A stretch of 64,000 bases of DNA from an uncultured Gammaproteobacteria bacterium (GTDB taxonomy: Bacteria; Patescibacteriota; Patescibacteriia; XYB2-FULL-38-15), in the NCBI GenBank assembly GCA_965231095.1, contig OZ246416.1:677595-741594 (forward strand). The letters are read 5' to 3'. Below the pieces are notes generated by a model. That model did not search any database. It was not told the DNA's origin and worked only from the letters and a program-made list of their open reading frames with translations. Position 1 is the stretch's first letter, and the number at the start of each line of letters is the position of its first letter. Of the stretch, positions 42,269 to 60,900 are shown piece after piece. The position numbers were made by a program, and so were the translations under genes.

Positions 42269-42775
42269 ATGGCCGGAAAAGATAGATATATTATCGCTAA
42301 AAATTGGCCATTTGTTGTGGTTGGCTGTCTTGTAGTAAGGGGCGATAAAGTGCTTTTAGTCAAGGAGGCGAGAAAAGAAGCCGGGAGTTGGAATCAGCCA
42401 GCCGGTTGGTTAGAAAAATATGAAAATCCTGTTGTTGGGGCTAAAAGAGAAGCAGAGGAAGAAACAGGTTTTAGAATTAAAATTAAGGGGTTTTTGGGAG
42501 TTTACAGTTTGGATCGTAGAAAAGTAAAAAGATGGCAAAGGGCGGGGCCAGTTGATCTACATGCTATTAAATTTTTATTTATCGCAAAAGTGGTAGGAAG
42601 GGGGCAAAAATTAAATCCTCTAGAAATTGCCGAAGTTAGGTGGTTTAGTTTAAAAGAGATTAAAAACCTTCATAAGCAGAAAATTTTGCGCGATCCGGAT
42701 ATGATCAATGAGGTTCAAGATTATTTGGCGGGTAGAAGTTATGACCTTAAATTAGTTCGTCATCTTATAGTTTAA
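42269..42775 (+). CDS. NUDIX hydrolase
   Basis: Nudix box GWLEKYENPVVGAKREAEEETGF; start trimmed from 42173 because the longer frame overlaps tRNA-Arg. Confidence 0.75.
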   Translation: MAGKDRYIIAKNWPFVVVGCLVVRGDKVLLVKEARKEAGSWNQPAGWLEKYENPVVGAKREAEEETGFRIKIKGFLGVYSLDRRKVKRWQRAGPVDLHAIKFLFIAKVVGRGQKLNPLEIAEVRWFSLKEIKNLHKQKILRDPDMINEVQDYLAGRSYDLKLVRHLIV

Positions 42776-42789
42776 ATTATTTATTTCGC

Positions 42790-42860
42790 GGGCCCGTAGT
42801 AAAGTGGTATTACGCCGCATTCGCATTGCGGAGGCGGGAGTTCGATTCTCCCCGGGTCCA
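42790..42860 (+). tRNA. tRNA-Ala (CGC)
   Basis: G3:U70 identity pair (gggcccg/cgggtcc), anticodon loop ttCGCat, discriminator A. Confidence 0.85.
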
Positions 42861-42864
42861 CTTT

Positions 42865-42890
42865 AAAACCCACCAATTATGGTGGGTTTT
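42865..42890 (+). terminator. Perfect hairpin aaaacccacc-aattat-ggtgggtttt
   Basis: 10-bp stem after tRNA-Ala. Confidence 0.55.
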
Positions 42891-42960
42891 AAAATTGTTT
42901 CACGTGAAACAATTTTGATAAAGAAAGGTTTTTAAAGCAATTGTTTCACGTGAAACAATT
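42891..42960. promoter_or_regulatory. Two copies of a perfect 22-26 bp palindrome AATTGTTTCACGTGAAACAATT (CACGTG core), 21 bp apart; candidate dimeric transcription-factor operator
   Basis: 42891-42916 and 42939-42960 are exact self-complementary copies. Confidence 0.5.
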
Positions 42961-43255
42961 AATAAATTACATATTTTAATAAATTAAATGTTTTTAATTA
43001 TTATAAAATATAGATTATTTTTTTGATTAATGATAAATTTTTTATTTGTGAAAAGAACGATGACATTTTGTGGATAACTTGTAAGTAAAATTTACCGTAT
43101 CGCTAGGAAACTGGTTTTATCGGCGTTGGGGGGGGTGGGATAGAGGGTGAGTGGTGTCGAGTGGTTTTTAACAAAAAAGTGAACATTAATCTTAACACAA
43201 TGTGTAGAATAACTTACACATAGTCAATGAACTAAAAAGTTGTTCACATCTGCGA

Positions 43256-43284
43256 TTGACTTTTTCGTAAAATCGTGGTATAAT
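43256..43284 (+). promoter_or_regulatory. Textbook sigma70 promoter TTGACT-17-(TGg)TATAAT heading the surface-protein operon, followed by ~250-nt structured leader
   Basis: Hexamers, 17-bp spacer and extended -10 TG read directly. Confidence 0.6.
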
Positions 43285-43539
43285 AATTATGTAAGTTATG
43301 ATAGTTAATAGGGAAAGGAGATTTTGTTTCTTTTTCCTGATAGTTATCAACAATTTAATATAAAAGGTAGCAGAGGTTAAGGTTTCTTTCCCAATCAAGG
43401 TCGTTTTCAAAAACGATCTCGTCCCGGAGGCGGCGTTTGTCGGCCGGGAGTGCCCGTTAGTACCCCAAAGGTGCTTGTACCCGAGTACCTTGGAACAGAA
43501 ATTTTAATCTTAGGTTTACCTTGAAATAGGTGATCGACG

Positions 43540-44223
43540 TTGTTTATGAAATATTTTTTCATAAAACTCATTATAATCACTTTTGTTTTTATTTCTCTCA
43601 TTGCTCTGTGGAAGGCGCCAGTTAGCTTGGCCCTGATGAATTCGGAGAGTTATATTAACTGGATGGATTCGCTGAATTTTGGGGGAGAAGAAACCTCCAC
43701 TTCAACAAACTATAGATTCCAAGATACTTTAGGAGAGATTGGGACAGGGGAAATTTCGAGCACCAATTATGCCGGCTTGATAGGTTTTCGCCAATCTGAC
43801 GCGGATCCCAAGATGACTTTTTCCATTTCCGATACTTCAGTGGACTTTGGTACATTGTCTACGAGCGCGGTTTCTTCGGACAGCATTACGATTACAAGTA
43901 CGACAAACGCGGTGGATGGATATATTACAACAATTTTTGAAACAGAAAATTTAAAAACCGGGGCAGGTGCGGATATTGATGATGTGGCCGATGGAACAGT
44001 GACGGCCGGTTCGGAAGAATACGGTGTCAGAACTTCCGGCGCTGACGGACAGATGAACGGGGCGGACACGGGGATTACAACTTCGCCGCAAACAGTTGCT
44101 TCTAACGCGAGTTGGATAAATGGAAGCGCGGTGACAATAACTTTTAAGGCAGCAATTTCATCGCTTACGTCCGCAGGGGCTTACGCGCACAATGTCACAT
44201 TGATTTCCACCGGAAGATTTTAA
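43540..44223 (+). CDS. Secreted beta-rich surface protein, paralog A (C-terminal ...LISTGRF)
   Basis: Signal peptide; shares ANDGY/AVDGY, EE(Y/F)GV(R/S)TS and C-terminal (F/L)ISTG(T/R)F with next gene. Confidence 0.6.
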   Translation: MFMKYFFIKLIIITFVFISLIALWKAPVSLALMNSESYINWMDSLNFGGEETSTSTNYRFQDTLGEIGTGEISSTNYAGLIGFRQSDADPKMTFSISDTSVDFGTLSTSAVSSDSITITSTTNAVDGYITTIFETENLKTGAGADIDDVADGTVTAGSEEYGVRTSGADGQMNGADTGITTSPQTVASNASWINGSAVTITFKAAISSLTSAGAYAHNVTLISTGRF

Positions 44224-44254
44224 AAATTCGCAGTTTATTATTTTTTAAAAATAT

Positions 44255-45358
44255 ATGGAAAGAAAAAAATTAGTTAAAAAAATTGTTTGGGGGACTCTTC
44301 TGAGTTTAATTTTGATGTTGGGTTTTCCGTCGGTTCCGGCGCGCGCGACGCACAGTGTTATTAAAGATACGATGAGCCGCCTCAAGGCGTCCACCGCGTC
44401 AAATCACACAATTACTTTTACGCTGGATGCGTCAACAAATATTATTGAGAATGAAACAATCACTATTACTTTTGCCGCGTCTTGGGTAGATGGGTTAAAC
44501 AGCATTGATTGCGAGGATATTGATATTTTGGATGATGGTGTGGAAGAATCAATTGCTGAGGTGGCCGTAGAGGCTTGCGCGGCCGATGCCGATGAATGGG
44601 GGGCTGTGGTTGCGGGAGATGTTCTTACTTTGACTGCTCCGTCTACGGGCTCAACTTATATTGATGCGAGCTCGGTAGTAATCATAGAAATTGGTACAAA
44701 TGCAACAGAAGAACATACTGGCAATACGCAGATTACAAATCCGGTCGCGGCTAATAATTTGGTTGTGAATATTGGCGGTACGGGTGATAGCGGAACAGAT
44801 CCGGACGGGCAATTCGCGGTTTCGATTATCGCGGAAGATCAGGTGACAGTGACGGCCACGGTTTTGCCGACTTTTACTTTTACAATTAGCGCAAGTACGT
44901 GTGCCCTAGGGGACTTGACTCTTGGCACAGTGCAAACCTGCGGTGTAACTTTAACAACGACAACCAATGCCAACGATGGTTATGCCACGACGATAGTTGG
45001 AACGGCTTCTGGCGCAGAGATGGTGCATTCCAACGCCACAGATAACATTGATAATGCCGGGGGTACAGTGGTTAGTCCTAATTCGGAAGAGTTCGGCGTG
45101 AGCACGAGCGATTCGTTGGTAGATATTGAACAATTAACTACGCACGGTAGTTGTGTATTGGCCGATGGTGTCGCTGTTGATGTTAGTGGTGTATCAATTG
45201 ATACACTTGGCGATAATACGGCCGCTTCAATCGCCTCAAATACCGTTCCGGTTTCCGCGGAAGCAACAACCGCCTGCTTTGTCGCTTCTGCCGCGGCAAC
45301 AACGGCTGCCGGCGAATATTCTTCTACGGTAACATTTATTTCTACCGGCACATTTTAA
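44255..45358 (+). CDS. Secreted surface protein, paralog B; N-terminal module duplicated in the 756-aa dockerin protein
   Basis: Signal peptide; DTMSRLK...ENETITITF...GLNSIDCEDIDILDDGVEE...CAADADEWGA...LTLTAPST module also at start of 46533 gene; ends TFISTGTF. Confidence 0.6.
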   Translation: MERKKLVKKIVWGTLLSLILMLGFPSVPARATHSVIKDTMSRLKASTASNHTITFTLDASTNIIENETITITFAASWVDGLNSIDCEDIDILDDGVEESIAEVAVEACAADADEWGAVVAGDVLTLTAPSTGSTYIDASSVVIIEIGTNATEEHTGNTQITNPVAANNLVVNIGGTGDSGTDPDGQFAVSIIAEDQVTVTATVLPTFTFTISASTCALGDLTLGTVQTCGVTLTTTTNANDGYATTIVGTASGAEMVHSNATDNIDNAGGTVVSPNSEEFGVSTSDSLVDIEQLTTHGSCVLADGVAVDVSGVSIDTLGDNTAASIASNTVPVSAEATTACFVASAAATTAAGEYSSTVTFISTGTF

Positions 45359-45431
45359 TTTTTATAAAATAATGTTTTTCCCCGCGGTAATTTACGCGGA
45401 AAGAAAAACCATAATTTAAAATAGGGGGACT

Positions 45432-46454
45432 ATGAAAAAAGTTTTTTTCGCGATTACTCTGGCTGCTTTAATTTTTGGCTTGGCGCCGGCGATCGCCTCC
45501 GCGACAACAATTTCTCCGCCGGTCATAGAATTTGACGCGCGGCCGGGGGATACAATTGTTGATGTTATTAAATTGTTTAATGAGACGGCTGAAGAAGTTA
45601 CCTTGACCGGAGAGGTGAGAACTTTTAAAGCGTTGAATGAAACCGGCGCGCCGTCATTTCTTCCCCCTGAAGAATCAACTGATTTGGCAACTTGGTTAAA
45701 ACTTGACGAGGCGACAGTCACTCTGCCGGCTGACGAGAGAAAAGATATTTTGTTTAGTATTAATGTTCCGGAAAACGCCGAGCCGGGCGGACACTTTGCC
45801 GGAATTCTTTGGACGCCGACTGGCGCACCAGCATTAGAAGGAAGCGGAGTTGGCATTACCATGAAAACCGGAACTTTGGTTTTGGTTCGCGTGGCAGGAG
45901 ATGTTAATGAGACCGGACGGCTGGCGAGTTTTACGGCCGACAGAGCTTCTTATAATTATTTGCCTGTTAATTTTTCAGTTCGTTTTGAAAATTTAGGAAA
46001 TGTTCATTTAAAACCGGCGGGCGTGATTGAAATTAAAAATTTGTTAGGAAGAAAAGTCGCCGCGCTTCCGGTGAATGGAGATTTATCAAACGTTCTCCCC
46101 GAGTCAATAAGAAAATTTGATGCGACTTGGCAAAAAACAGAAGTGCCGCTTGGCGCGTCCGAATGGCAAAGAGAAATGGACAATTTTGCTTGGGGAAAAT
46201 ATACCGCCACGCTTATTTTGGATTATGGAATAGATGGGCAACAAACATCCGCCTCGCTCGCTTTCTGGGTTTTTCCGTGGCGCGTGACTCTTTTCTATCT
46301 GGCCATAGCGATAATAATTATTCTCTTAATTATCATTGGTATTAGAAGCTATAATAAGTGGGTTATAAAAAAATTCAGTCAGCAAAACAATCAACAAAAT
46401 AATCCTCCAAGCGATTTGCCAACCGACGGAGTTGACGATCAAAAAATGGAGTAG
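45432..46454 (+). CDS. Surface protein with signal peptide, beta-rich ectodomain and single C-terminal TM anchor + Q/N-rich tail (DUF916/DUF3324, CscA-like architecture)
   Basis: MKKVFFAITLAALIFGLAPAIASA signal; C-terminal VTLFYLAIAIIIILLIIIGIRSY TM; family call by architecture only. Confidence 0.5.
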   Translation: MKKVFFAITLAALIFGLAPAIASATTISPPVIEFDARPGDTIVDVIKLFNETAEEVTLTGEVRTFKALNETGAPSFLPPEESTDLATWLKLDEATVTLPADERKDILFSINVPENAEPGGHFAGILWTPTGAPALEGSGVGITMKTGTLVLVRVAGDVNETGRLASFTADRASYNYLPVNFSVRFENLGNVHLKPAGVIEIKNLLGRKVAALPVNGDLSNVLPESIRKFDATWQKTEVPLGASEWQREMDNFAWGKYTATLILDYGIDGQQTSASLAFWVFPWRVTLFYLAIAIIIILLIIIGIRSYNKWVIKKFSQQNNQQNNPPSDLPTDGVDDQKME

Positions 46455-46532
46455 GGGATTCGCGCGGAAAAAAAGAAATTTATAGAGCTTAGATAAAAGC
46501 GTAAAAACAAAAATCAAAATTAAAAAACGTCA

Positions 46533-48803
46533 ATGGGGGAGTTTGTAAGAAAAAAAAGTATTGGTATTTTAATCACGGTTCTTACCCTGACAAGTTTTTT
46601 CGTTGGATTCAATCAATCTGCTGCCAGCAAACTTTCTTCGGTCAGCGACACGATGAGCAGGCAGAAAATCGGAGTATCCGCCAATCATGAAATTATTTTT
46701 ACTTTAGCCGGCGGATCGGCAGTCACGGAAAATGAAACGATTACGATTATTTTTCCGACTGGTTTTGCTTCGGGGTTAAATAGTATAGAGTGTGGTGATG
46801 TTGATTTATTGGATGATGGAGTTCAAGAAAATTTTGCGGCGTCGCCCGGATGCGCGGCGGATGCGGACGAATGGGGCGCGGCGGTCAGTACAAGGACATT
46901 GACACTTACGGCGCCGTCTACGGCCGCGACTTATATTAATGCGAGCTCAGTTGTCACTTTGCGGGTTGGAACAAATACAACAGAAGAAGGGGTAGGCAAT
47001 GCGCAGATTGTTAATCCTGGGAGCGCGGGAAGTAAGGTAATAAATATTGGGGGAACTTTTGGCGATTCAATCGAGATTGCCATTGCCATTGTGACAAATG
47101 ATCAAGCCGCGGTTATCGGGACTATTCCGACAGGCGATACTCCGGGCGGCGGTTCACCCGGGTCAGACACGACGCCGCCAATTATTTCAAATTTAAGAGT
47201 GGAAAATATTTTACAAACTTCGGCCACGGTTCTTTGGGACACAAATGAACCGGCGACTTCAAGAGTGAATTATGGCTTGACGAGTGGCTATGGATCGTCC
47301 ACTACGGGCGACGGCGGAGGATTAGTTCTTAGCCATAGAGTTGATCTGACCGGACTCACGGCAGATACAATTTATCATTTTAATGTAGTGACAGCCGATT
47401 CGCTTGGACATACAACGACTACAGTTGACGATACTTTTAGAACGCTTTCCGGCCTAGATATTACCGCTCCTGTAATTTCCAATATTCAAGTTATAAATAT
47501 TACGGAGACCGGCGCGACTGTGACATGGACAACAAATGAGCCGGCAAATTCAAAAGTAGAATATGGTTTGACCGACGCGTATGAATTGGGAGAAATAACC
47601 GCCGCGGATTTTGTGGCTTCGCATAGTTTGCCGCTCGCGGGATTAACAGGAAACACAACATATCATTTCCGCGTGACGTCGGCTGATTCTTCCGGTAATG
47701 CCGCGACTTCTCCTGACGGCACTTTTACGACAATTGCTCCGGCAGACCTGACAGCGCCAATTATTTCAAATATCAGAGTTATAAATATTACAGAAAATTC
47801 CGCGACTGTTACTTGGGACACGAATGAGGCGGCAAATTCAAGGGTGCGATATGGTTTGACGGCAACTTACGGATTGGGAAATATTTTTTCCGCCGATTTA
47901 GTTTTGGCACACAGTATAAATTTAAGTTCCTTGACTCGCAGCACAATTTATCATTTTGAAATTACTTCATCTGACAGCTCGGGGAACACGGCCGTTTCCG
48001 GAGACAGAACTTTTTCAACTTTACCGGATATAATTCCGCCGGGAAATGTGACAGATTTTTTAGCCACGCCAACTGCGGCGAGAACAATTTTATTGACCTG
48101 GGTTAATCCAACTGATACTGATTTTGCCGGAGTTTTAATTAAGAGAAGTTTTACTGGGTATCCGGCAAGTCCGGCTGACGGAGAATTAGTTTTTGACGGA
48201 GTAGCAACCTCCTTTCCCGATACAGCAATCACTCCCGCAAATTATAACCGACCAATTTACTACACAGCTTTTGCCTATGACACAACTGGAAATTTTGCTT
48301 CAGGCGCTCTGGCAGAAGCGACGATTGAAGTGTCCCTGACATTAGACGTTAAGGCCTGGCCGGAAAAAAGATGGCCGCGAAGCGGAAATTGGTCAACCAG
48401 AGGCGCGGTGGAATTGAGGGATGTGGCAACATCAAATATTTTATATGAAGATACTGTTGCGACCTCAGACCTTGGTTTGGGCTCGGTGGAATTTCCCACG
48501 GCACCGATTGTAAATTATGATATTAGCTTTAAAGGTTTGTCGCATTTAAGAAAAATTTTGCGCGACGCTCCACTTTCGGGCGGAGTAAATTCATTGGATT
48601 TTACTTTAGCAAATACTTTTTATCTTTTGGCCGGAGACGTTCATCGCTCGTCTGATAATATGGTAAACGCCCTGGATATTTCCACCCTGCTCGGTTCTCT
48701 TTCCACCGGCAACGAAGTTACTGATTTGAATCATGACACCGGAGTCAATTCTTTGGATATAAATATTTTATTGGCCAACCTGATGGTCAGGGGAGACGAA
48801 TAA
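46533..48803 (+). CDS. Secreted multidomain protein: paralog-B-like N-module, three FN3-like repeats, C-terminal dockerin
   Basis: Three ~100-aa repeats (P(V/I)ISN(L/I)(R/Q)V...TV(L/T)W(D/T)TNE...YHF.(V/I)TS(A/S)DS.GN); C-terminal SDNMVNALDISTLL and DLNHDTGVNSLDINILLANL match dockerin Ca-binding DxNxDGxVNxxD repeats. Confidence 0.7.
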   Translation: MGEFVRKKSIGILITVLTLTSFFVGFNQSAASKLSSVSDTMSRQKIGVSANHEIIFTLAGGSAVTENETITIIFPTGFASGLNSIECGDVDLLDDGVQENFAASPGCAADADEWGAAVSTRTLTLTAPSTAATYINASSVVTLRVGTNTTEEGVGNAQIVNPGSAGSKVINIGGTFGDSIEIAIAIVTNDQAAVIGTIPTGDTPGGGSPGSDTTPPIISNLRVENILQTSATVLWDTNEPATSRVNYGLTSGYGSSTTGDGGGLVLSHRVDLTGLTADTIYHFNVVTADSLGHTTTTVDDTFRTLSGLDITAPVISNIQVINITETGATVTWTTNEPANSKVEYGLTDAYELGEITAADFVASHSLPLAGLTGNTTYHFRVTSADSSGNAATSPDGTFTTIAPADLTAPIISNIRVINITENSATVTWDTNEAANSRVRYGLTATYGLGNIFSADLVLAHSINLSSLTRSTIYHFEITSSDSSGNTAVSGDRTFSTLPDIIPPGNVTDFLATPTAARTILLTWVNPTDTDFAGVLIKRSFTGYPASPADGELVFDGVATSFPDTAITPANYNRPIYYTAFAYDTTGNFASGALAEATIEVSLTLDVKAWPEKRWPRSGNWSTRGAVELRDVATSNILYEDTVATSDLGLGSVEFPTAPIVNYDISFKGLSHLRKILRDAPLSGGVNSLDFTLANTFYLLAGDVHRSSDNMVNALDISTLLGSLSTGNEVTDLNHDTGVNSLDINILLANLMVRGDE

Positions 48804-48807
48804 AGAT

Positions 48808-51435
48808 ATGAGGAGGATAATTTATACAATTGCTGCGATTGGTTTCAGTTTTCTTCTCGGCCAAGCCGCGCTTGCCGCTCGCTTTGAATTATCTCCCGCT
48901 TCAACTGGTTTTATTACCGGATGCGATTCGGCGGTGAGCATTGAAATTGATACTGAAGGAGTAACTTCTGATGCGGCAAATGTTTTGGTTCATTATGATC
49001 CAACAAAAATTGAAATAGTTGATACAAATCCATCGGCAGCCGGAATCCAAATCAGAAATGGAAATGCTTACGAGGCTTATGCTGACAATACTGTTTTGTC
49101 GGGAAGCGGAGTGATTCGCTTAACTGGATTTTCTTTTATAAGTCATCTTTCCGGCCGAGCAACTTTCGGAACAATTATTTTCCGCGGACGACCCGGAGCA
49201 GCTGATGCAAATTTCACAATTGAATATGTGGCAGGTAGCACAACCGACAGCAATATTGCCGAATATCTTACAAGTGATGACCTTTTAACCGGAGTAGGAA
49301 ACGGCGCTTACACTTTTCGCGGCGGATCGTGCGTGGCCGACGTTGTCCCACCAAATGTTTTAAACCCAACTCCCGCACCAGATGAACGCGACGTGCCGCT
49401 TGATACAAATATTACTTTTGATATTCGCGACGCTCAGTCCGGAGTTGACTTGGATACCTTAACAATAAATGTTGACGGAACAATTTATACGCGCGACGGA
49501 TTAAGCAGATTTTCTTTTGTCGGGACGCCGGCGTCCTATGCCGTGGCAATAAACCCCAACACAGATTTTATTTTAGGTTCGCCGGTGCTTGTGGAAATCA
49601 ATGCTTCTGATTTTTCCGGAAACAGCATGGCTCCGTATCGTTATATTTTTAATCAGCCGGCCGCTCCGCCGCCAGTTCCGCCATCATGCGCCGCGCTTGG
49701 TTGCGCCACTCCGACTGAATGTACCGCCGATCCGGTTTTGCCGGAAGATATTGATGAAGAACCGACCGTTCCTGAATCGCAACAACTTTCTTTCTCGGAT
49801 TTTTCTTTTTACGGCGCTGATGGAACAATCCAACTTTTACCAAATCGAAATAATGAAATAACAACTCTCGCCGGGAGCTCGGTAATTGTTTCCGCCGCGG
49901 CGAGCAAATTTCCTCGTGAGGTGGCGCGGGTCGTCATAACCCTAAACGGTCGGTCGTATCTTCTCGGTTATAATTTGACGGCAGATGCGTATCAAACAAT
50001 TTTGCAAATGCCCGCCGCCGGATTGCATTCTTCAATAATTTTGATTGATTACGCGGACGATTCGCACGATCGCGTAGAGGGCGCTTTTTCACTTTTATCC
50101 CAAGGTTTTGTTTGGCAAGGAACAACGGCAAATAAATTATCCGGCGCAACCGTCACGCTTTACGAAAGTTCTCCCGCGTCTCGCGTTTGGGATGCCGCTC
50201 TTTATCGTCAAGATAATCCAATAACAACTAATGCGTCCGGCCAATTTTCATATCTCGTTCCGTTAGGTCGTTATTATTTAGTAATTTCAAAAGAGGGCTA
50301 TCGCGACCAAACCACGCCGGTTTTTGAAGTCGCAAACAATGTTGTAAATCCGAGCGTGGAAATTCTCGTCGTCCCTCCGCCGCTTGCCGAAGTTTGGGAT
50401 CCGGCCGCGCCCGTCACGGAAAATTTACAAAATGTTATTGAAAATTTAGGCCAAAAAACAATTTACGCAAGTGAAGTTTTACAAAAAGATGTTTTGGATA
50501 ATCCGGCGGTGGAAGAAAGTACGGAAAATATTGCCGCGCCGGCCGTGGCCGCCGTGGCCGTTGTCACTTACGGCACCGCCATTTCTCTTGGTTCGCTTTT
50601 GCCATTTTTACAATTACTTTTTACCCAACCGATTTTACTTCTTTTTCCAAAACGGAGAAAAGGTTGGGGAACGGTTTATCATTCTTTATCAAAAATGCCG
50701 GTGGATTTGGCGATTGTTCGTTTGTATGAAAAAGTGACAAATCGCTTGGTGCAAACTCGCGTGACGGATAAAGAAGGGCGCTTCGCGTTTTTCGTCCAGC
50801 CCGGACAATATTTTATCAAAGTAATAAAACCCAATTTTTCTTTCCCGACAAATTTTTTGAAAAATACAAAAGAAGATGTTAAATATTTTGATCTTTATCA
50901 CGGCGAAGAAATTACCGTGACGGAAAAAAATACTCTCGTCACGCCAAACATTCCGATTGATCCGGAGGGAGAGGGGAAAATGTCGCCTGACAAAAAAGTT
51001 CTCTTTGTTCATTTTGGAAGAAAAATTCAAAACATTATCGCGCCGTTGGGAATTGTCGCCGCCACTATTTCAGTTTTGGTCTCGCCGCAAATTTGGATGG
51101 TCGCGATTTTGGCCGGACACTGTTTACTCTATGCTCTTTTCCGACGATTGGCGAGAAGTAAAAAACCAAAGAGCTGGGGAATTGTTTATGAAAGTAAAAC
51201 TAAATCTCCGGTCGGACTCACTGTCGCAAGAATTTTTGAAACCGAATACAACAAACTTTTGGAAACACAAGTGACCGACGGCCGCGGCAGATATTCATTC
51301 TTGGTCGGCTCGAACGCCTACTACGTGACTTTCAGCAAACCGGGTTTTGAACCGAAGAGAACCGAGACGGTTGATCTTCGCGGAGCAAAAGAAGGAGGAG
51401 CGGTGGGGTTGGATGTGGGGTTGGATAAAGTATAG
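48808..51435 (+). CDS. Membrane-anchored scaffold-like protein: N-terminal cohesin-like domain, Ig-like region, carboxypeptidase-regulatory-like domains, two TM segments
   Basis: Signal peptide; FELSPASTGFITGCDSAVSIEIDTEGVTSDAANVLVHYDPTKIEIVD...FGTIIFRG resembles type-I cohesin (YDPxxLEI); CarbopepD_reg-like (TVTLYESSPAS...SGQFSYLVPLGRYYLVISKEGY; VRLYEKVTNRL...GRFAFFVQPGQYFIKV); TM ~50500-50640 and ~51050-51130. Confidence 0.65.
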   Translation: MRRIIYTIAAIGFSFLLGQAALAARFELSPASTGFITGCDSAVSIEIDTEGVTSDAANVLVHYDPTKIEIVDTNPSAAGIQIRNGNAYEAYADNTVLSGSGVIRLTGFSFISHLSGRATFGTIIFRGRPGAADANFTIEYVAGSTTDSNIAEYLTSDDLLTGVGNGAYTFRGGSCVADVVPPNVLNPTPAPDERDVPLDTNITFDIRDAQSGVDLDTLTINVDGTIYTRDGLSRFSFVGTPASYAVAINPNTDFILGSPVLVEINASDFSGNSMAPYRYIFNQPAAPPPVPPSCAALGCATPTECTADPVLPEDIDEEPTVPESQQLSFSDFSFYGADGTIQLLPNRNNEITTLAGSSVIVSAAASKFPREVARVVITLNGRSYLLGYNLTADAYQTILQMPAAGLHSSIILIDYADDSHDRVEGAFSLLSQGFVWQGTTANKLSGATVTLYESSPASRVWDAALYRQDNPITTNASGQFSYLVPLGRYYLVISKEGYRDQTTPVFEVANNVVNPSVEILVVPPPLAEVWDPAAPVTENLQNVIENLGQKTIYASEVLQKDVLDNPAVEESTENIAAPAVAAVAVVTYGTAISLGSLLPFLQLLFTQPILLLFPKRRKGWGTVYHSLSKMPVDLAIVRLYEKVTNRLVQTRVTDKEGRFAFFVQPGQYFIKVIKPNFSFPTNFLKNTKEDVKYFDLYHGEEITVTEKNTLVTPNIPIDPEGEGKMSPDKKVLFVHFGRKIQNIIAPLGIVAATISVLVSPQIWMVAILAGHCLLYALFRRLARSKKPKSWGIVYESKTKSPVGLTVARIFETEYNKLLETQVTDGRGRYSFLVGSNAYYVTFSKPGFEPKRTETVDLRGAKEGGAVGLDVGLDKV

Positions 51436-51451
51436 AAGCAGATTCAGTAGT

Positions 51452-51489
51452 TCCCCTCCCTTGATGGGAGGGGATTGAGGGGAGGGTGG
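51452..51489. repeat. G/C palindrome tcccctccc-ttgat-gggagggga + ttgaggggagggtgg upstream of DUF559 gene
   Basis: Mirror partner at 51826-51863 (cacccctctccc ... ccctctccc-acaa-gggagaggg). Confidence 0.6.
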
Positions 51490-51492
51490 TAA

Positions 51493-51840
51493 ATGAATCA
51501 TTTAATCACATTTGCCAAAAATTTAAGAGAAAATTCCACTGACGCAGAGAGATTATTGTGGCACTACCTTAGAGCAAAACAATTTGGTGATTTAAAGTTT
51601 AGAAGACAGCAGATCATTGGAAAATATATCGTAGATTTTGTTTGTTTTGCTAAGAAGATTGTTATTGAACTTGATGGAAGTCAACACGCAGATGTAGATA
51701 ACAAACTAAAAGATAAAATAAGAGATAGGTGGTTAGGAAGTCAAGGATTTATTGTTCTTCGTTTTTGGGACAATGATGTTTTAAAAAATATTGAAGGAGT
51801 TTGGGGTGAAATTGAAAAGCAGTTACACCCCTCTCCCTAA
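51493..51840 (+). CDS. DUF559 endonuclease-domain protein (Vsr/restriction-endonuclease-like fold), probable selfish element
   Basis: 115 aa, ...DFVCFAKKIVIELDGSQHAD...; flanked by CCCTCCC/GGGAGGG palindromes; strong GGAGG SD unlike neighbours. Confidence 0.7.
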   Translation: MNHLITFAKNLRENSTDAERLLWHYLRAKQFGDLKFRRQQIIGKYIVDFVCFAKKIVIELDGSQHADVDNKLKDKIRDRWLGSQGFIVLRFWDNDVLKNIEGVWGEIEKQLHPSP

Positions 51841-51998
51841 CCCTCTCCCACAAGGGGAGAGGGGAAAAACACAACGTTCTTCGGCAGAGATTTCATCGTT
51901 TAGTTGTTTCTAAAAGTAAGACAAAAAGGTAGAAATAAAAACCCCGCCTTCGCTAAAGCTATGGCGGGCGAGGAAAAACAAAAACAAAAAGTACCCAT

Positions 51999-54900
51999 AT
52001 GTTTAGTCCAGGAGGAGAAAAACCTAATATTGTAATTAAATCCCAAGGCGGAACCAACTTGACTCTGTTGGTGTTTGTCTTGGGTATTTTGTCATTAACG
52101 AGCGTTGGAATAATGACGCTCTCGGTCGTGGAGCAACTCCGGCCGGTGGCTTTTACGGCAATCAATAAACAACTTAATTATCAAGGCAAACTGCAAAACG
52201 CGGGGGGTATCACCCTTCCAGACGGGAATTATTCAATGAAGTTTTCCGTCTACGACGCGGCCGCGGCCGGCACGCGGCTTTGGACAGAATGCGGTACGGT
52301 CGGCACGCCAACGGCGCGAACCGTCGCGGTCGCGAACGGAGTTTTTTCGGTGCTGCTCGGCGATACGGCTTCCGGCGCTTGCCCGGGCCCGGCGAATGCC
52401 AACGCCATCACTTTGGATTTTAACAGCGACGCATATTATCTCGGTTTGACGGTTGAAGCCGACTCGGAAATGACGCCGAGAAAACGTCTCGGCGCTTCGG
52501 GCTATGCTTTTAACGCCGATTTATTGGACGGCCTTAATACTTCCGCCGCCGGCGGCTCAAACGCTTTCGTGCCGGTGACGGACGCGAGCGGCCATTTAAC
52601 TTTGACACAAAATTTAACTTTGGGCGGAGTGTTTAAAAATTCCGACGGCTCTGCCGCTTCGCCTTCCTATACTTTTACGAACGATCCCAACACAGGTTTT
52701 TATAGCGCGGCGGGAAATAATATTGGAGTCGCGGCAAATGGCGCGATGATTGCATATTTGATGGCGACGACCAATTACACTGATTCGTATTTCTATTCTC
52801 CAAGATTTATCACGCCGGCAACAACAAATTACCCGATGACTTTGACCGGAAGAATAGATGATGGAGCAGCCGCGGTCGGAGTGATTTTAGACAACTCCAC
52901 AACTTTGGCAACGGCGGGCGCGAAGATTGTCTCCTTTAAAAACAACACCACCGAAAAAGCCGCCATAGGTTTGAATGGCGAAGTTATGGCAGGGGCTGGG
53001 ACGGCTTTATTGCCCGCCCTTTCATTTTTAGGAGATCCAAATACCGGTTTTTATACCTACTCGGCAAATCAAATAGGAATCGCCAACGATGGAGGAATCA
53101 CCGGCGTCTTTTCTTCGGGTTCTCTATATATCAATTATATATTGGCGCTTTCCGGGAACACTTTAAACCTTACCGGTTCAATGGCAGACGGAGGAACGGC
53201 AGTTGGCGTGAAATTGGGTTCTTCTGTAGACCTTACAGTTGCGGGAAGTAAGATTGCTTCTTTTGTAGACAATAACACGACCGAAAAATCCGCTATTGGG
53301 CTTAATGGCGAAATAATGGCCGGAGCGGGAACAGCGTTGTTGCCTTCATTAAGTTTTCTCGGCGACCCGAATTCTGGAATGTATACTTACGCTTCCGATA
53401 CTTTGGGTTTTGCCGTAGGGGGGACAGCAGTCGGAGTCTGGGACGGCTCCACGATTTATGTTCCGGCGGTTCATCCTCTCGCTACTACGGCGTTGACTTT
53501 GAAGGGTAGGGTAGCAGACGGCGGAACCGCGGTAGGCGTGATTTTGGACAACACAACTTCCCTGACAACTGCAGGAGCAAAATTAGTTAGCATTAAAAAT
53601 GCTACAGTAGAAAAAGCATATATTGATAAGGATGGTAACGCCTACCTCCCCGGATTAAATGTTTCCGGCCTCACCGCCTCTTTAGCTGTCTACACCGACG
53701 GATCAAAAAATTTAACCTCAACCGCTCCGACTTCCGGCGCGATTGGATATTGGTCTCGCGCCACGACAACTTTGTCTCCAACAACGGCGAATGATAATAT
53801 TTCGGTTAGTTCAAATGTTACCGGAGCGGCGATTACCGGAACAGCTTCCGCCACCGGCGCGGTCATAAACTATGGCGTCTACGGCACTGCCGCAGGCAAC
53901 TCCGCCAAGGGCGTTTACGGAAGTGCCACCGCCACCGGCGCAGTGTTAAATTTCGGCGGAGATTTTTACGCGGCGGGCAATAGCGGCCAGGCCGTGCGCG
54001 GAACGGCTTCCGCCACCGGCGCGGTGACAAACTACGGCGGCGTTTTCTATGCCGCGGGTGACACGGGTTTTGGTATTGTTGCCGACGCGACATCAACTAA
54101 TGCCGGACAAAATTTTGGCGGATATTTTTATGCCAGAGGCACTACCGGCGTTGCTGTTTTTGGCAATGCCCCGGCCACCGGTGCTGTCACAAACTACGGC
54201 GGTAGTTTCCAGGCGGCGGGCAATAGCGGCCAAGCGGTGCGCGGCAATGCCACGGCCACCGGCGCGGCGGCAAACTATGGCGGCACATTTTATTCAGCGG
54301 GTAATTCCGGCGTAGCGGTTTATGGCTCGGCTTCCGCCACCGGCGCGGTCACAAACTACGGCGGGCAGTTTTATTCAGCCGGCGATACTGGTATGGCCGT
54401 TTTTGGTTACGCCACCGGCGCTGGCCTAAACTATGGCATTTATGGTTCCACAAATTCTGCCTCCGGATGGAGCGGATATTTTAACGGCGGTTTGGGTATG
54501 TATGCTTCCGCGGCGAGAATTAATTCTCTCACCGCTTCTTCCGCGGTCTATACCGACGCGTCAAAAAATTTAACTTCCACCGCTCCGACTTCCGGCGCGA
54601 TTGGATATTGGTCTCGGAGCAGTACAACATTAAGTACGGCTACAGCCGGCGACATAGTTTCTCTTTCCGGCGGTTTGAATATGAACGCGAGTCCGATTAC
54701 CGCTTCGTATATTTCCACAAATCCTTGGGGAACAAACTCGGTTGGTTCGGCAAACGGCGTGGGCCTGCAGATGAATCGGTTGCTCGGCGCGAACACCGGA
54801 CGCTATACCGTCACTTCAAGCGGCATTAATACAACCTCTGTTTTGTTTGATAATTTTTATGATTCCGCGGGAACCATTGCGGTCGGGGACACGGGCGTTA

Positions 54901-57900
54901 TTACAGTTGATTTTAATCCTCAACTTGCTTGGACAGCCAGCACGGCAACAGGTTTTGTTTATCAGAACGGAATAATTGTAATGAGTTTTTATAATACAGT
55001 TATACCGACCGACGTGACAGTGGAAGTTTATAGATGTTCGCCAAACGTTGATTGCGCGGCCGGGACAGGAACTGACGCTTGGGTGACGATTTACAGCACA
55101 ACAACCAACGATAAAAATCCTTTGGTTATCAGCCCGACTCCGTCTGTCAATTATATTAAGAGAATAAGATTTACTTTTGCCGATGGCGATCCGACTTATG
55201 GTTCATGGATTTCTGAATTGGAATGGTTTCCGACTCGTGACGCTTCGGCAAACCAATTGGCTGTTCTTCCAAAATATTTCAACCAAAGCCTAGACGTTTC
55301 CTGGACGAGTTGGAATATGAAAAAAGTTGCCGACTGGAGCACGACCGCGACAATTTCAAACGCCGGCGCGGCGTATTTTGCCGGACCGGTTGGTGTAAAT
55401 GATGCCGGACCCGACGCTTCTTTGGAAGTTGTAAATGACGGCTCGGGGGATTCTTTCTTGGTCGCCGATACTAATGATGGAGATGCTACGCCATTTGTGA
55501 TTCAAGCAGATGGGGATGTTGGTATTGGAACAGCGGCACCAGCTGCTTTATTACACATAGCAAAAGACTCAACATACAATAGTGAGGCAGCGGCAGGCAT
55601 AAAAATAACTGATTCAACTTTAACTGATACTGGTCTTCTTTTGGGCGCCGACGCGACAAACGATATTGCCTACATCCAATCAATGGATCCGGGAACGGGT
55701 TACACTAGGGCGCTTTCAATAAATCCTAATGGCGGAATGACAAGATTATTTATGAACAGGGGCGCAGCGGCTGGAACAGGTATTTCTTGGTATTTACCAA
55801 CTTTTACGGCGTGGGCGGAATACATGGCTCAGGCGACGCAAACCCTAGCCGGTCCGACGGCAAACATTACTGCTCCTTCGGGAACGATTGTTACCTCGTG
55901 GGCACTCAGAAGTTTTATTGAAAATGCCTCTAATTACGGTTGGACTTTTGAATCGGGAACATCAACTGGTCAGCCGAGTGTAGTGGCGGAAATTAGATCT
56001 AGCGACGGAACAATCAGATCAAATACTAGCGTTCTCGCTGCCGTGAGTATGGGCATCGGCGACGATACCCCCGACGCTTCTTTGGAAGTTGTGAACGACG
56101 GTTCGGGAGATTCGTTCTTGGTCGCCGATACAAATGATGGCGACGCTACGCCTTTTGTAATTGACCCCGACGGAGATGTTGGCATTGGAACAACAGGACC
56201 TCTCACTAAATTTCATGTAAATAGCGCGAATACATTAACCGGTTCTTATCATCAGGCCGTGATAACCTCAAGTGATACGGCGGCGATTGATAAGGGCGGG
56301 TCAATTGGTTTTGGCGGAGCTTATACGGGAACAACCCTGACACAGTGGGCGGGCATCTCGGGAAGAAAGGAAAATGTGACGGCCGGAAATTATGCCGGCT
56401 ATCTTGCTTTGGAAACAAGAGCAAATGGTGGAAATCTTACGGAACAAGTGCGTATTGATTCCGCGGGAAGTGTTGGTATTGGAACAACCGGACCGGACAG
56501 AAAATTGGATGTGTTGGCCGCCTCAAGCCCGCAATTGCGTTTGACTCAAGTTGACAATACCACTTACGCAGATTTTCAAGTTGATTCCAACGGTGATTTG
56601 ATAATGAATGTTGATGGCATCTCAAGCCAACTGGTTTTAGATAATGGCGGGAATATCGGGATTGGAACCGCGGCGCCGGCCGGGGCCTTGGATATAGTTT
56701 CCGCAAACGCCCCCACCTTGCGTCTCGCGACGAACGCGACCGACGCTACGGTTAAATACGGGTATGTCGCTTCTCGCCATTATACGAATGCCGAGCAAGA
56801 TCTTATGGTATTTATGAGTGGAAGTTCCGCCACGGAAAATAGCATTCGTTTGGGCGGAGGATCAGGATCTTTTAATGCGACAAATAGAATATCTTTTTAT
56901 ACGGCCGCGGATCAAATAACTTTGGACGGAACCGAAAGAATGAAGATAGATTCATCGGGCAACATTTGGATAAATTCTCTTGACGCCTCTTCAATCGTCT
57001 ACACTGACGCTTCAAAAAATTTAACTTCAACTCCTCCGGGTGCGGGAACGATCGGATATTGGTCTCGAGGTGGGACGACTTTATCTCCGGCGACGGCGAA
57101 TGATGTGGTTTCCGTTTCGGGCACTGGCGCGACAGCGATTACCGGCACAAGTTCAGCCGCGGGAGGCAAAGGAATTTATGGCACAGCGACCGACGCGACT
57201 GCTGTTGCAAATTACGGAGTTTATGGAACAGCCGCTGGGACAGGAGCTCTTTCTGCCGGCGTTTACGGCGTAGCTTCGGGCGCGGCGAATTCCGTTACCG
57301 GCGTATATGCTGAGGCTTCGAATACGGGCGCTTATGAAAATTACGGCGGAGCCTTTTTTGCGCGGGGAGAGACCGGCGTCGGCATCTACGGCGAAGGAGT
57401 TTCTACTGCCGCGGCTGTAAATTACGGCGGAAAATTTTCTGCTCATGGTAAGGCCACTGGTTCAGCCGCTGTTTACGGTGCGGCGCCCGAGGCCGGAGCG
57501 TTCACAAGTTATGGCGGATATTTTACGACAGTTAGCGATACCGGCAGAGGTGTTTACGGCTCGGCTACGGCTTCCGGCGCAGTCACAAACTACGGCGGAT
57601 ATTTTACCTCGGCCGGAACAGGCATTCTGACAAGTGGTGTTTACGGAGAAGCTTCTGGCGCGGCAAATAATATCGCAGGAATTTATGGCAAGGCGTCAAA
57701 TACAGGGGCTTATACAAATTTCGGCGGGGTGTTTTACGCCGCCGGAGAAACGGGCATTGGTATTCGCGGTGAGGCTACTTCCACCGCGGCGGCCATAAAT
57801 TTTGGCGCAAAGTTTTACGCGAATGGCGCAGCATCAGGTACGGCTGGCGTTTATGGACAAGGCGTTGATACCACTGCCATCGTTAATTATGGAGGATATT

Positions 57901-60900
57901 TTAATGCAAGAGGAACCGCTACCGGAGCAAGCGGTGTTTATGGAGAAGCAAGCGGCGCGGGCGCGGTTTACGGAGTTTATGGAAACGCTTCAGCCACCGG
58001 CGCAGTCACAAACTACGGCGGCGTTTTTTACGCCGCAGGTGATTCCGGCAGAGGTCTCTATAGTAACGCCACCGCCACCGGCGCGGTCACAAACTACGGC
58101 GGTTATTTTTCCGCCGCGGGTAATTCCGGCGCTGGTATTTACGGCACGGCCACCGCCACCGGCGCGATCACAAATTACGGCGGCGTTTTTTACGCCGCGG
58201 GTGATTCCGGCGCTGGCGTGTACGGCACGGCGACGTCTACTACGGGGACAAATTTCGGCGGATATTTTATTGCGGCCGGAACGGGTAGCGATACGGCCGG
58301 GGTTTATGGTTCATCTACCGGCACAGGAGGGACCAAAGCGCTCTATGGCGGGCGTTTTATCGCGGCAGGGGCGGTTACGGGAACAGCCGGCGTTTACGGT
58401 TCGGCGTCCGGCGCGGGAACGGTTTATGGCGTTCAGGGAAATGCTTCGGACACCGGCGCGGTGACAAATTATGGCGGATATTTTACGGCGGCGGGCGATA
58501 CCGGTCGCGGCGTCTACGGCGCGGCAACCGACTCGGGTGCGGTTGCAAATTACGGCGGATATTTTACAGCCGCGGGGACAAGCAGTGCGTCCGGAATTTA
58601 TGCTGAAGCAACGGGCGCAGGTCTGGTTAGCGGTGTTTATGGGTTAGCTAGTGACGCGACTGCCGGAACAGCTAATTTTGGAGGGTATTTTGAAGCTAGG
58701 GGTCCTCACAGCTGGAGTTATGGAGTCAAAGGTTATATTCCGAATAGCGTTGGTGGCAAAGCCGTTTGGGGCCACGCCGCGGAAACAACTTCAACAAATT
58801 ACGGAGGTTATTTTAAAGCGGATGGCGCGGGTGCCGCGGCGGCTGGTGTTTATGGCTGGGCTTCGGGGGCGGCCGCGGTCTACGGCGTTCAGGGGTATGC
58901 TTCAGATGCTACCGCCGTGACAAACTATGGCGGGTATTTTTCTGGTGGCGGGCAAACCGGGCGCGGGGTTTATGGTTCGGCCACTTATACTGGTGCGACG
59001 ACAAATTATGGTGGATTTTTTGAAGCGGCTGGAACTTCTTTCGCGACGGGCGTTTATGGCCGAGCGACTGGGGCGGGCACGGTCTACGGTGTTCAGGGAA
59101 TCGCAAGCGACACCACTGCTGTGACAAACTATGGCGGATATTTTATAGGATGGGGAGATACGGGATATGGTGTTTACGGCGAAGCGGGAGATACCGGCGC
59201 GGGCGCAAACTACGGCGGATATTTTAAGGGAAGAGGGAGCGGAGGAGCTTACGGGGTTTATGCTCTTGCTGACGCGGCATCCGGAACAAACTATGCTGTT
59301 TATGGCAACGTAACTTCTTCAACCGGTTACGGCGGTTATTTTACCGGCGGTTATGGACTTTACGGAAGCCGCGGACAAATTGCTAGAGCGCCGAGCGGTA
59401 ATGATACTTCTTATGCCCTGGTTGTTGAGGGCGCGGTTTGTATTGATGATAGTTCGGCAAATTGTCCGAGTACGCCAACTTCGGGCACGCTTTATACTGA
59501 AGGCGCGGCTTTGCAAACTTTTGACTTAGCCGAACTTTATGAATCAACCGAAGCGCTCGCGGCAGGTGATGTGGTAAGTGTTGATACCGGTAGCGCGAGA
59601 AAAATAGTGAAGTCAACCGAAGCATATCAAAATACAACAATGGGAGTTATTTCTACCGCTCCGGGTATTACTTTGGGCGGATGGAGCGCCGGACCAAATC
59701 AATATCCGGTGGCTTTGGCTGGCCGCGTGCCGGTAAAAGTGAGCGATGAAAATGGACCGATCGCGATCGGCGATATTTTAACTTCGTCTTCTACAACAGG
59801 CGTGGCAATGAAAGCAACTCGTCCGGGACAAAAAATCGGCGTGGCGCTTGAAGCGTGGAGCGGAACGGGCGTTGGAGTTCTTGAAGTATTTATGGCCCCC
59901 GGCTGGGATTCTGCCGGAACAATTGCCACTGATGGCACAGCAATTTTCTTGAATGATACTTTTACTTTTAATAAATTGGATACTGCGGATAATATTATTC
60001 AGGGGTATGGTTCAAAAGGTTTGTCTTTCCGCGGATCAGGATGGGACGGCACGGCAGGGCAAAATGTTGAAATGAAACTTTTGAGTAAAGTTACTGACGC
60101 GACAAATTATAAACTCGCAGTTTTAAATAATGCGGGTGAAGAAGTGGCTTATGTTGGAGGAGATGGATCGTTTGGAGTTACCGGAAAATTTTATCCGGCG
60201 GCAACGACCGGAGCGCAAACTGACGCGTATATTTTCTATGCCGCAAATTATATGCGAACCAATGCTGATGGTTGGTCAACCGGTTCGTTTGATTTCGCGG
60301 AAATGTTTTTGTCGCACGAGTTGCTCGAAGCCGGCGACATTGTCACGCTTGATGAAGCAACAAATGAGTATGTTAAAAAATCAGTCGCGGCTTATGATAA
60401 TATGGCGCTTGGTATTGTTTCCACAAAACCGGGATTTTTAGCCGGAACAAACGTTGACTTTAATAATCCTTCGGCAGACCAAGGGTATCCGATTGCCTTA
60501 GCCGGACGCGTGCCGACCAAGGTTTCCGCGGAAAACGGGCCGATTCGTCCGGGCGACTTTTTAACAACTTCCGCGACCTCGGGGGTAGCGATGAAGGCGA
60601 CCGAGTCGGGAATGATTTTGGGCACGGCGCTTGAAAGTTTTGACGGGCAGGGAATCGGGCTGGTAAAAGTTTTTGTAAATTTATCTTGGTACAACGTGGC
60701 AAGCGAATCAACACCGGTTGGTGAAATGGCGCAGCTCACGTTGACGGGCGATTTGAACATGGCGGGAAATTATATTTTAAATGTTGGGAAAATTGTCGGG
60801 GTGGATGAAAAATGGAGTATTGATGAAAATGGAATTTTGAAAGTGAAATTGATAGCGGAAGACGCGAGCGAGAAAGAAATGTTTGGATTGACTTCGGCCA

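Follow-up and report, generated by a model that had tools for sequence, protein, structure and literature searches.

A probable Pam-type pilus operon in a patescibacterial genome, with a WxLIP-like chaperone and an apparently divided anchor

Five consecutive genes, here called A to E, lie on the forward strand of a 64,000-nucleotide stretch of DNA (contig OZ246416.1 of assembly GCA_965231095.1, positions 677,595 to 741,594; hereafter the window) titled as an uncultured gammaproteobacterium and placed by GTDB in the Patescibacteriota (XYB2-FULL-38-15). All five encoded proteins begin with a signal-peptide-like amino terminus, as read from the sequence. A and B share a carboxy-terminal domain (CTD), C is a two-domain protein tethered to the membrane, D repeats the amino-terminal domain (NTD) of B, and E carries hydrophobic membrane regions (Table 1). 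On the observed homologies, domain content, gene order and fusion of D with E in relatives, we consider it likely that A-B-C-D-E is an operon for a pilus built by donor-strand exchange, a divergent and compact member of the Pam type in the candidate phyla radiation (CPR)/Patescibacteria. The pilus type itself is already published. Troman et al. (bioRxiv 10.64898/2026.03.03.709456), who studied Ca. Mycosynbacter amalyticus filaments by cryo-electron microscopy, described the subunits PamA and PamB as an amino-terminal beta-sandwich, a strand serving as linker and an open carboxy-terminal immunoglobulin (Ig)-like domain that accepts the linker of the neighbouring subunit. The same operon encodes PamT, which has the CTD only and is the proposed tip; PamC and PamD, chaperones like PapD and FimC that end in a transmembrane (TM) helix; and PamR, the proposed terminator and anchor, with an amino-terminal strand, two FnIII domains and a TM helix. 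What looks new here is that the homology of the chaperone to WxLIP is made explicit, the text of Troman et al. mentioning neither DUF916 nor WxL, and that terminator and anchor appear to be split and joined through cohesin and dockerin.

Probable pilins and chaperone

The AlphaFold2 monomer model of B (predicted local distance difference test score, pLDDT, 87.1) places two beta domains at residues 36–192 and 207–365 and leaves the segment between them, residues 193–206, unpaired. This linker has the consensus DDQVxVTATVDPT and is among the best-conserved stretches of the family. A has the CTD but no DDQVxV linker, an architecture like that of PamT, and is found by our own CTD hidden Markov model (HMM) with E 1e-27. 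The first-pass annotation had seen in A and B two paralogues with a common carboxy-terminal end, a view that the alignments bear out: residues 90–227 of A and 205–367 of B are 35% identical (E 1e-11), the paralogy being confined to the last 140–160 residues or so, and the proteins finish in ...LISTGRF and ...FISTGTF, respectively. We compared 128 proteins with a pilin CTD, from 80 other species and the window, and 124 have their carboxy terminus exactly at Y-x3-(L/V/I)-T-(Y/F)-(I/V)-x-T-(G/A)-x-(F/Y)-COOH, with F as the final residue in 106 and Y in the other 18. Of 997 other open reading frames (ORFs), 17 end in a looser form of the motif, so that its presence in the CTD proteins is far from chance and the conservation that the first-pass annotation proposed to check holds well beyond the window. 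This conserved free carboxy terminus forms the last strand of the acceptor domain, and the chaperone and the donor strand probably recognise it as part of their target.

Pfam gave no match to A or B, its WxL and peptidase M73/TasA families included, and searches of Protein Data Bank (PDB) chain sequences with A, B and the B-family profile returned nothing useful from copies that lack PamA (25PZ) and PamB (25QA). Specific matches come from NCBIfam. A matches CPR_pilus_PamT (NF058579; E 4.1e-18, 65.7 bits, model positions 5–168 of 241) and, over the full domain, CPR_Pam_pilin_C (NF058581; E 5.7e-9, 36.2 bits), and residues 213–367 of B match the latter at model positions 3–148 of 148 (E 2.4e-7, 30.9 bits). 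NF058581 also matches 34 of 40 homologues of B, the best at 3e-40, and the PamT model 11 of the 40; the pilins of the related loci L009 and L012 reach 135–172 bits with NF058581, whose cutoff is 55. With 34 of 40 homologues matched and the pilins of these two loci above the cutoff, the assignment of A and B to the Pam pilin family, as divergent members, appears sound.

Ahead of its CTD, A carries three SSxNY-type repeats separated by Gly-rich turns. Such repeats are kept in small CTD-only proteins of 14 species, and the PamT model extends over this part of A as well; the repeats could cap the protein's own groove or form an adhesive tip. Of the six cysteines of B, two lie in the NTD, where the copy in D has them as well, and four in the CTD; three disulfides, as many as are reported for PamB, could be formed from them.

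Beta-rich, secreted proteins with a conserved carboxy-terminal strand could in principle form TasA/camelysin-like or amyloid-like matrix fibres or an S-layer-like coat, in which case C would be an unrelated Ig-fold membrane protein. The TasA connection, which the first-pass annotation had raised, finds no footing: A and B are free of Peptidase_M73/TasA matches up to E 1, and 40 members of the B family up to E 10. The specific matches go instead to the Pam models, and the fold and synteny of C, described next, argue for a dedicated chaperone, which leaves fibres or coats of this kind very improbable.

C was initially described as having a signal peptide, a beta ectodomain, a single carboxy-terminal TM segment and a Q/N-rich tail, and its AlphaFold2 model (pLDDT 88.9) agrees, with two beta-sandwich domains followed by a long TM-containing helix and the Q/N-rich tail. 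The family signature PGGH(Y/F)AGIL lies in a hairpin of the first domain, the tip of which (residues 133–141) is the sole low-confidence part of the ectodomain. Foldseek searches of the PDB return first the Enterococcus faecium WxLIP structures 9i25_C ('WxLIP ... bound to long WxL', E 9e-12) and 9i1y, and next the chaperones of chaperone–usher (CU) pili, namely CfaA, CsuC, YadV, FimC, PapD, Caf1M, DraB, EcpB and SafB, with E 1e-9 to 1e-7 and TM-scores on the target of 0.5–0.58. The Pfam model WxLIP_PGBD (PF06030, equal to DUF916) matches C at E 0.0024, below the gathering score, and 23 of 34 homologues of C, with a best E of 3.8e-8; some homologues are already titled 'DUF916 domain-containing protein' at NCBI. 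The C-family profile finds EfmWxLIP1 alone among PDB sequences (E 0.0049). For comparison with Firmicutes we took eight WxL clusters from plasmid records (L082–L089), and hhalign aligns the C family with their DUF916+DUF3324 proteins at 98.3% and E 2.5e-14, over columns 1–336 against 6–359. The Pfam model for DUF3324 gives no match. From sequence comparison and predicted structure, we conclude that C is a full-length homologue of WxLIP/CscA with a PapD-like fold and a membrane tether.

The pairing of pilin and chaperone recurs across the CPR. A scan of one genome per GTDB species gave 390 stretches with a relative of C, of which the best 80 loci were examined; HMMs built from the families of the window place a CTD-bearing gene directly upstream of the chaperone gene in 68 of 71 such loci, which come from different CPR species. 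Two chaperone genes are present in 12 of the 80 loci. The chaperones beside the L009 and L012 pilins match the C-family profile with E 1e-114 to 4e-128 and are 40–41% identical to C in tblastn. An exhaustive profile search counted 16,078 cluster representatives in the chaperone family with E ≤ 0.001, and 2,600 with the limit set at 1e-30. Record titles among the best 80 loci name Falkowbacteria, which is also the label of the operon's closest relatives, together with Kerfeldbacteria, Microgenomatus, Woykebacteria, Nomurabacteria, Uhrbacteria, Kuenenbacteria, Gracilibacteria, Peribacteria, Paceibacterota and Saccharibacteria; at phylum level the titles are mostly Patescibacteria, with Gammaproteobacteria, Rikenella, Pirellulales, FCPU426 and Nanoarchaeia besides. 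Of these other labels, Nanoarchaeia was the one checked, and an archaeal occurrence was rejected: the locus L067 (DATBWR010000012.1, 'Candidatus Nanoarchaeia') has a complete tip-pilin-chaperone set, and its contig is a mis-binned bacterial one, since it encodes a leuS_bact leucyl-tRNA synthetase (922 bits) and ComEC. Several of the labels 'Gammaproteobacteria', 'Rikenella' and 'Pirellulales' are probably similar binning errors. By these titles the system looks restricted to the CPR/Patescibacteria. Four loci encode very large proteins of 901–1808 residues in which the acceptor domain at the carboxy terminus is the only recognisable part (L053 1785–7211, L056 209–4249, L068 5070–8765 and L070 2380–5085); by analogy with 'large WxL' proteins and with FimH and PapG, these would be tip adhesins with big cargo domains.

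A putative divided terminator and anchor

The repetition of B's amino-terminal module at the start of D, already noticed in the first-pass annotation, is extensive: residues 3–206 of B and 6–200 of D are 50% identical (E 1e-51). D matches the NTD HMM with E 8e-45 and retains the donor-strand motif (...IVTNDQAAVIGTIPT); it has neither a CTD match nor a TM segment. The only Pfam match in its last 90 residues is Dockerin_1 (PF00404; E 5.7e-4, 20.5 bits), and the carboxy terminus also has a weak match to a dockerin in the PDB, 5k39_B. In E, the only Pfam match of residues 24–184 is Cohesin (PF00963; E 0.037, 14.7 bits), which the orthologue of E in L003 matches with E 0.002 and 18.7 bits; comparison of the amino terminus of E with PDB sequences gave no cohesin match.

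The arrangement of these modules becomes clearer in relatives. In L006, L007, L015, L034, L050, L061, L075 and L079, the equivalent of D and E is one chain of 1038–1394 residues. Residues 1–587 of the L006 protein are 56% identical to residues 1–597 of D, and its residues 653–1197 are 51% identical to residues 325–875 of E. The split is seen only in the clade of the window (L002–L004), and the pieces confined to the split form are residues 598–756 of D and 1–324 of E, with the dockerin- and cohesin-like modules placed exactly at the break point of the relatives' single chain. A non-covalent membrane anchor is implied by a fission whose new ends resemble a dockerin and a cohesin, and we take this fission as good indirect evidence that D and E would bind each other through these modules. 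The link to a cohesin–dockerin system that was drawn when the DNA was first read is thus supported, with hits that lie below the Pfam gathering thresholds. Most likely, D serves as a donor-only terminator or adaptor and E as the membrane anchor. A single TM helix closes the D-like proteins of L013 and L058, which in this resemble PamR.

The likeness to cellulosomal cohesin–dockerin pairs extends to a duplicated D-x-N-x-D...D calcium-loop segment at the end of D, a cohesin-matching beta module at the start of E and the adjacency of the two genes, which are fused in relatives. It differs in that the Pfam scores fall short of the thresholds and that the proposed role would be to tie down the base of a pilus, not to scaffold enzymes. 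One might also picture D and E as a separate cohesin–dockerin surface assembly, for example a display scaffold with a borrowed pilin-like amino-terminal fold, while the pilus is ended or anchored in another way or is shed. E does contain CarboxypepD_reg and SdrD_B-type domains, which are common in adhesins, Pam pili are easily detached (Troman et al., bioRxiv 10.64898/2026.03.03.709456), and an NTD-only gene follows the chaperone gene in just 15 of 69 loci. However, D retains the donor-strand motif in addition to the fold; wherever D is present it lies directly after the chaperone gene and on the same strand; and the single-chain relatives of D are membrane proteins, like PamR. A separate assembly is hence quite improbable in our estimate, and a D–E pair at the base of the pilus remains the preferred reading.

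All five genes look like one operon, extending over about 43.26–51.44 kb. Upstream, the tRNA gene and its terminator (42790–42893) form the boundary, with a NUDIX gene lying on the far side of the tRNA gene. The promoter-like site is the top promoter match within 42700–52100, and both of its hexamers are identical in the orthologous loci L002–L004. One conserved promoter, a terminator upstream of it and intergenic gaps of 4–78 nucleotides together suggest a single transcription unit. In an alignment of four species, the leader shows conserved blocks with variable GC-rich stem-loops between them; it matches no Rfam family, and its fold z-score of -1.94 is not significant, although the leader could be regulatory. 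As the AGGTGA and an ATG at 43546 are kept in three orthologous loci, the true start of A is probably this ATG, a slight correction to the ORF start at 43540.

Table 1. Coordinates of the genes, protein parts and neighbouring features in the window
Feature	Residues	Nucleotides	Strand	Remarks
tRNA gene		42790–42860	+	Rfam 67.7 bits
Terminator		42862–42893	+	14-bp stem, directly 3' of tRNA gene
Promoter-like site		43256–43284	+	TTGACT-17-TATAAT with TG extension, 11/12 match
Leader		43285–43545	+	About 255 nucleotides; 3' end is ribosome-binding site AGGTGA
A		43540–44223	+	ORF of 227 residues
A, repeat region	~30–87	43627–43800		Three SSxNY-type repeats
A, domains	~89–227 (CTD)			Signal peptide; amino-terminal extension of ~55 residues; Pam CTD; no linker (donor) strand
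B		44255–45358	+	ORF of 367 residues
B, signal peptide	1–31
B, amino-terminal beta-sandwich	32–192	44348–44830
B, linker/donor strand	193–206	44831–44872		EDQVTVTATVLPT
B, carboxy-terminal acceptor domain	207–367	44873–45355
B, terminal motif		45317–45355		Y-x3-VTFISTGTF-COOH
C		45432–46454	+	ORF of 340 residues
C, domain 1	25–154	45504–45893		Holds PGGHFAGIL hairpin 117–155
C, domain 2	162–280	45915–46271
C, TM helix	from 283	46278 onward		Long helix 283–322
C, ends				Amino-terminal signal peptide; Q/N-rich cytoplasmic tail
D		46533–48803	+	ORF of 756 residues; 78 nucleotides after C
D, pilin NTD and linker strand	33–200	46629–47132		After signal peptide
D, remainder	~212–505 (FN3)			Gly/Pro spacer; three FN3 domains (Pfam); beta module
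D, dockerin-like carboxy terminus	~700–750	48630–48782
E		48808–51435	+	ORF of 875 residues; 4 nucleotides after D
E, cohesin-like module	24–185	48877–49362		After signal peptide
E, Ig-like and Pro-rich region				After cohesin-like module
E, remainder	325–875	49780–51432		CarboxypepD_reg-type domains; at least two hydrophobic membrane regions (~580–598, ~740–758)
DUF559 gene		51493–51840	+	Pfam E 6e-40
Giant ORF		51999–61355	+	3118 residues

Downstream of E follow a DUF559 gene with a very-short-patch-repair-like endonuclease fold, which is probably unrelated to the pilus, and then a giant ORF. The latter starts with a TM segment followed by the motif INKQLNYQGKLQ, and closely similar amino-terminal segments, for example (A)INKQLNYQGKL and its variants, open the proteins that come after the pilus operon in L006, L007, L034, L058 and L079. 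Its first 500 and last 818 residues have no Pfam match. Troman et al. report a 'tail fibre-like protein' as a constant neighbour of pam operons, and the giant ORF may encode it.

Proposed assembly

In the operon, exactly one protein is acceptor-only (A), exactly one combines donor and acceptor (B) and exactly one is donor-only (D). By analogy with Pam and CU pili, we infer strand insertion, an order of assembly and cohesin–dockerin binding as follows. All five proteins would be exported by Sec, C being retained in the membrane by its carboxy-terminal helix. A strand from the PGGH hairpin of C would cap the open CTD of newly exported A or B, in parallel with PapD-type chaperones and with what is predicted for WxLIP and for PamC/PamD. 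Since A has an acceptor CTD only, it would start the fibre as the tip; each new B would then place its linker in the CTD of the previous subunit and displace the chaperone, and the shaft would grow from its base. D, which offers no CTD, would end growth on incorporation, and binding of its dockerin to the amino-terminal cohesin of E would tie the base of the fibre to the cell. In CU systems, as seen in Pap and Fim structures, the chaperone grips the carboxy-terminal carboxylate of the subunit; a grip of this kind would explain why the CTD proteins end exactly at the motif.

With CU pili (Pap, Fim, Caf1, archaic Csu and class 5 CFA/I) the system has in common the two-domain Ig-like fold of the chaperone, the set of acceptor-only tip, donor-plus-acceptor shaft subunit and terminator, and the conserved carboxy terminus of the subunits. 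By contrast, the operon holds no usher-like protein and an outer membrane is likewise absent, the chaperone is anchored in the cytoplasmic membrane instead of being soluble in the periplasm, the donor strand is an inter-domain linker of two-domain subunits and not an amino-terminal extension, and the pilins have no detectable sequence similarity to CU pilins. Similarities to Pam pili go further. Both systems occur in CPR hosts and have a two-domain pilin with a conserved linker strand, a small CTD-only protein (A, like PamT), a PapD-like chaperone with a carboxy-terminal TM helix, and an FnIII protein without an acceptor domain at the base; both lack an usher and an ATPase. The present operon is nonetheless the smaller, with one shaft pilin and one chaperone against PamA/B/E and PamC/D, and its lineage looks Falkowbacteria-like by its closest relatives, whereas Troman et al. 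treat mainly Saccharimonadia and Microgenomatia. D has a whole pilin NTD, the linker and three FN3 domains where PamR has a bare strand, two FnIII domains and a TM helix, and the anchor is a separate protein, E, apparently joined through dockerin and cohesin. A further difference is that no ATP synthase genes were seen beside the operon, in a window annotated in part.

Several points weigh against assigning the operon to a Pam-type pilus. A and B lie below the NCBIfam cutoffs (A at 65.7 bits against an equivalog cutoff of 240 for NF058579, and A and B at 36.2 and 30.9 bits against 55 for NF058581), so that their membership depends on transitive homology. C is likened to PamC/PamD by architecture and not by sequence. 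Foldseek comparison of the B model with a PDB copy that lacks PamA and PamB gives generic tandem-Ig adhesins alone, at TM-scores near 0.2; the matches (SdrD, integrins, CsuE, PapG, EbpB and RbmA) say little about the modelled fold beyond 'tandem beta-sandwich surface protein'. The dockerin score of D (20.5 bits) is under the gathering threshold of 22.9, and the cohesin scores of E and of its L003 orthologue (14.7 and 18.7 bits) are under that of 24.1. As the NTD-only gene occupies the place directly after the chaperone gene in 15 of 69 loci, a D-type terminator is not universal. Finally, filaments have not been seen in this lineage. These reservations are contained in our estimate that a Pam-type pilus operon is likely.

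Relation to WxL clusters

The first-pass annotation had likened A, B and C to the cell-surface complex (Csc) clusters of Firmicutes, with A and B as the partners of a CscA-type DUF916 protein. For C this holds, in that the protein belongs to the WxLIP lineage by the hhalign comparison and by the PF06030 matches of its homologues, and DUF916 is detectable in C itself at the weak level given above; the expected DUF3324 match is missing, and A and B are not WxL proteins. Even with E relaxed to 10, A, B and 40 relatives give no match to the Pfam WxL model. We also built an HMM of the WxL domain, and it picks up no pilin CTD in 3327 ORFs from CPR genomes; conversely, the Firmicutes WxL loci contain nothing that the pilin CTD HMM recognises. 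Aligned by hhalign, with the CTD alignment made by hmmalign, the CTD and WxL profiles give P 0.014 and a probability of 3%, the signal coming mostly from the last strand; the observed score exceeds that of every one of 150 column shuffles but is attained by four of the 150 block shuffles. At low stringency the alignment is colinear, with ...FG... in the first strand, TNAxxGYxxTV facing RGxNxGWxLxV, and AGxYxxTLTYIAT facing YxTTLTWxL. The positions of the W-x-L motifs read G-Y-x-x-T and T-Y-I-A in the pilin CTD. Sequence comparison does not, then, show the pilin CTD to be a WxL domain.

WxL clusters of Lactobacillales and Bacillales (Siezen 2006, PMC1534035; Hassan & Williamson, PMC9772566 and PMC10599100) group three kinds of protein: a small one that consists of the domain only, a larger one that has this domain at its carboxy terminus, and a TM-anchored one with two domains (PMC10599100). 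Hassan & Williamson predict that a disordered hairpin of WxLIP turns into a strand and so closes a gap in the beta-sandwich of WxL, and the hairpin is reported to order only when bound (PMC10599100); the PGGH hairpin of C is its counterpart. The operon shares this cluster plan, a full-length homologue of the anchored protein (CscA being DUF916, DUF3324 and a TM segment), a predicted hairpin strand with which the anchored protein completes the beta-sandwich of its partner, and partners that end in an aromatic-containing strand, ...YxTTLTWxL in WxL proteins and ...YxxTLTYIATGTF here. The differences are equally plain: the operon has no HMM-detectable WxL domain (PF13731), no W-x-L motifs and no LPXTG ORF corresponding to CscD, its host belongs to the CPR and not to the Bacilli, its partners carry a conserved inter-domain donor strand, and WxL proteins are described as peptidoglycan-bound platforms, not as fibres.

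The shared layout, the full-length homology of C to WxLIP and the weak colinear similarity of CTD and WxL domain (P 0.014) would also suit a static surface complex of the Csc/WxL type, in which C holds A and B non-covalently and displays the NTD of B, with no polymerisation. Yet A and B match Pam pilin models, and the solved members of that family are polymers. The inter-domain linker, moreover, shows strong conservation and persists in D despite the missing CTD, something that a static complex does not need; and the WxL HMM searches are empty in both directions, with an hhalign probability of 3%. We regard a static complex as unlikely, and a polymerising Pam-type pilus as the better account of the operon.

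A broader idea, which we put forward tentatively and hold to be less probable than its contrary, is that Pam pili and the WxL/Csc clusters of Bacilli are two branches of one old chaperone–subunit assembly system that belongs to bacteria lacking an outer membrane. The mark of such a system would be the membrane-tethered PapD-like chaperone (WxLIP, the PamC/D type and C), with the WxL domain as the counterpart of the Pam acceptor CTD. Were this so, WxL clusters would follow the same logic of start, extension and stop as A, B and D with E. As read from the sequences of L082–L089, a strand-like (T/S/D)xGx(I/V)xF and then a Pro-rich spacer stand at the start of the mature small WxL proteins. In these clusters, the small LPXTG proteins (CscD) run from a signal peptide through a similar strand (GEIGFTG, AGVIFTH or TRISFVS) and a Pro-rich spacer to LPxTG. 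Such GxIxF strands on Pro-rich stalks look like donor strands and a wall-anchored terminator, in parallel with A, B and D. Under the same supposition, cohesin–dockerin binding would be a third way of anchoring the base, beside the TM helix of PamR and the sortase route of CscD.

CPR bacteria are dependent on host-cell contact, which Pam pili, their abundant filaments, are thought to make. The locus would represent a minimal, five-gene version of the system with a clean division into tip, shaft and stop, in a lineage outside those emphasised so far. Its chaperone belongs to a very large family that is homologous to WxLIP/CscA of lactobacilli, enterococci and Listeria, and this homology suggests that strand complementation could operate, with the same chemistry, in the long-puzzling WxL surface clusters as well. 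The split between D and E, in turn, offers a natural test case in which cohesin and dockerin may stand in place of a covalent link in the anchor of a pilus.

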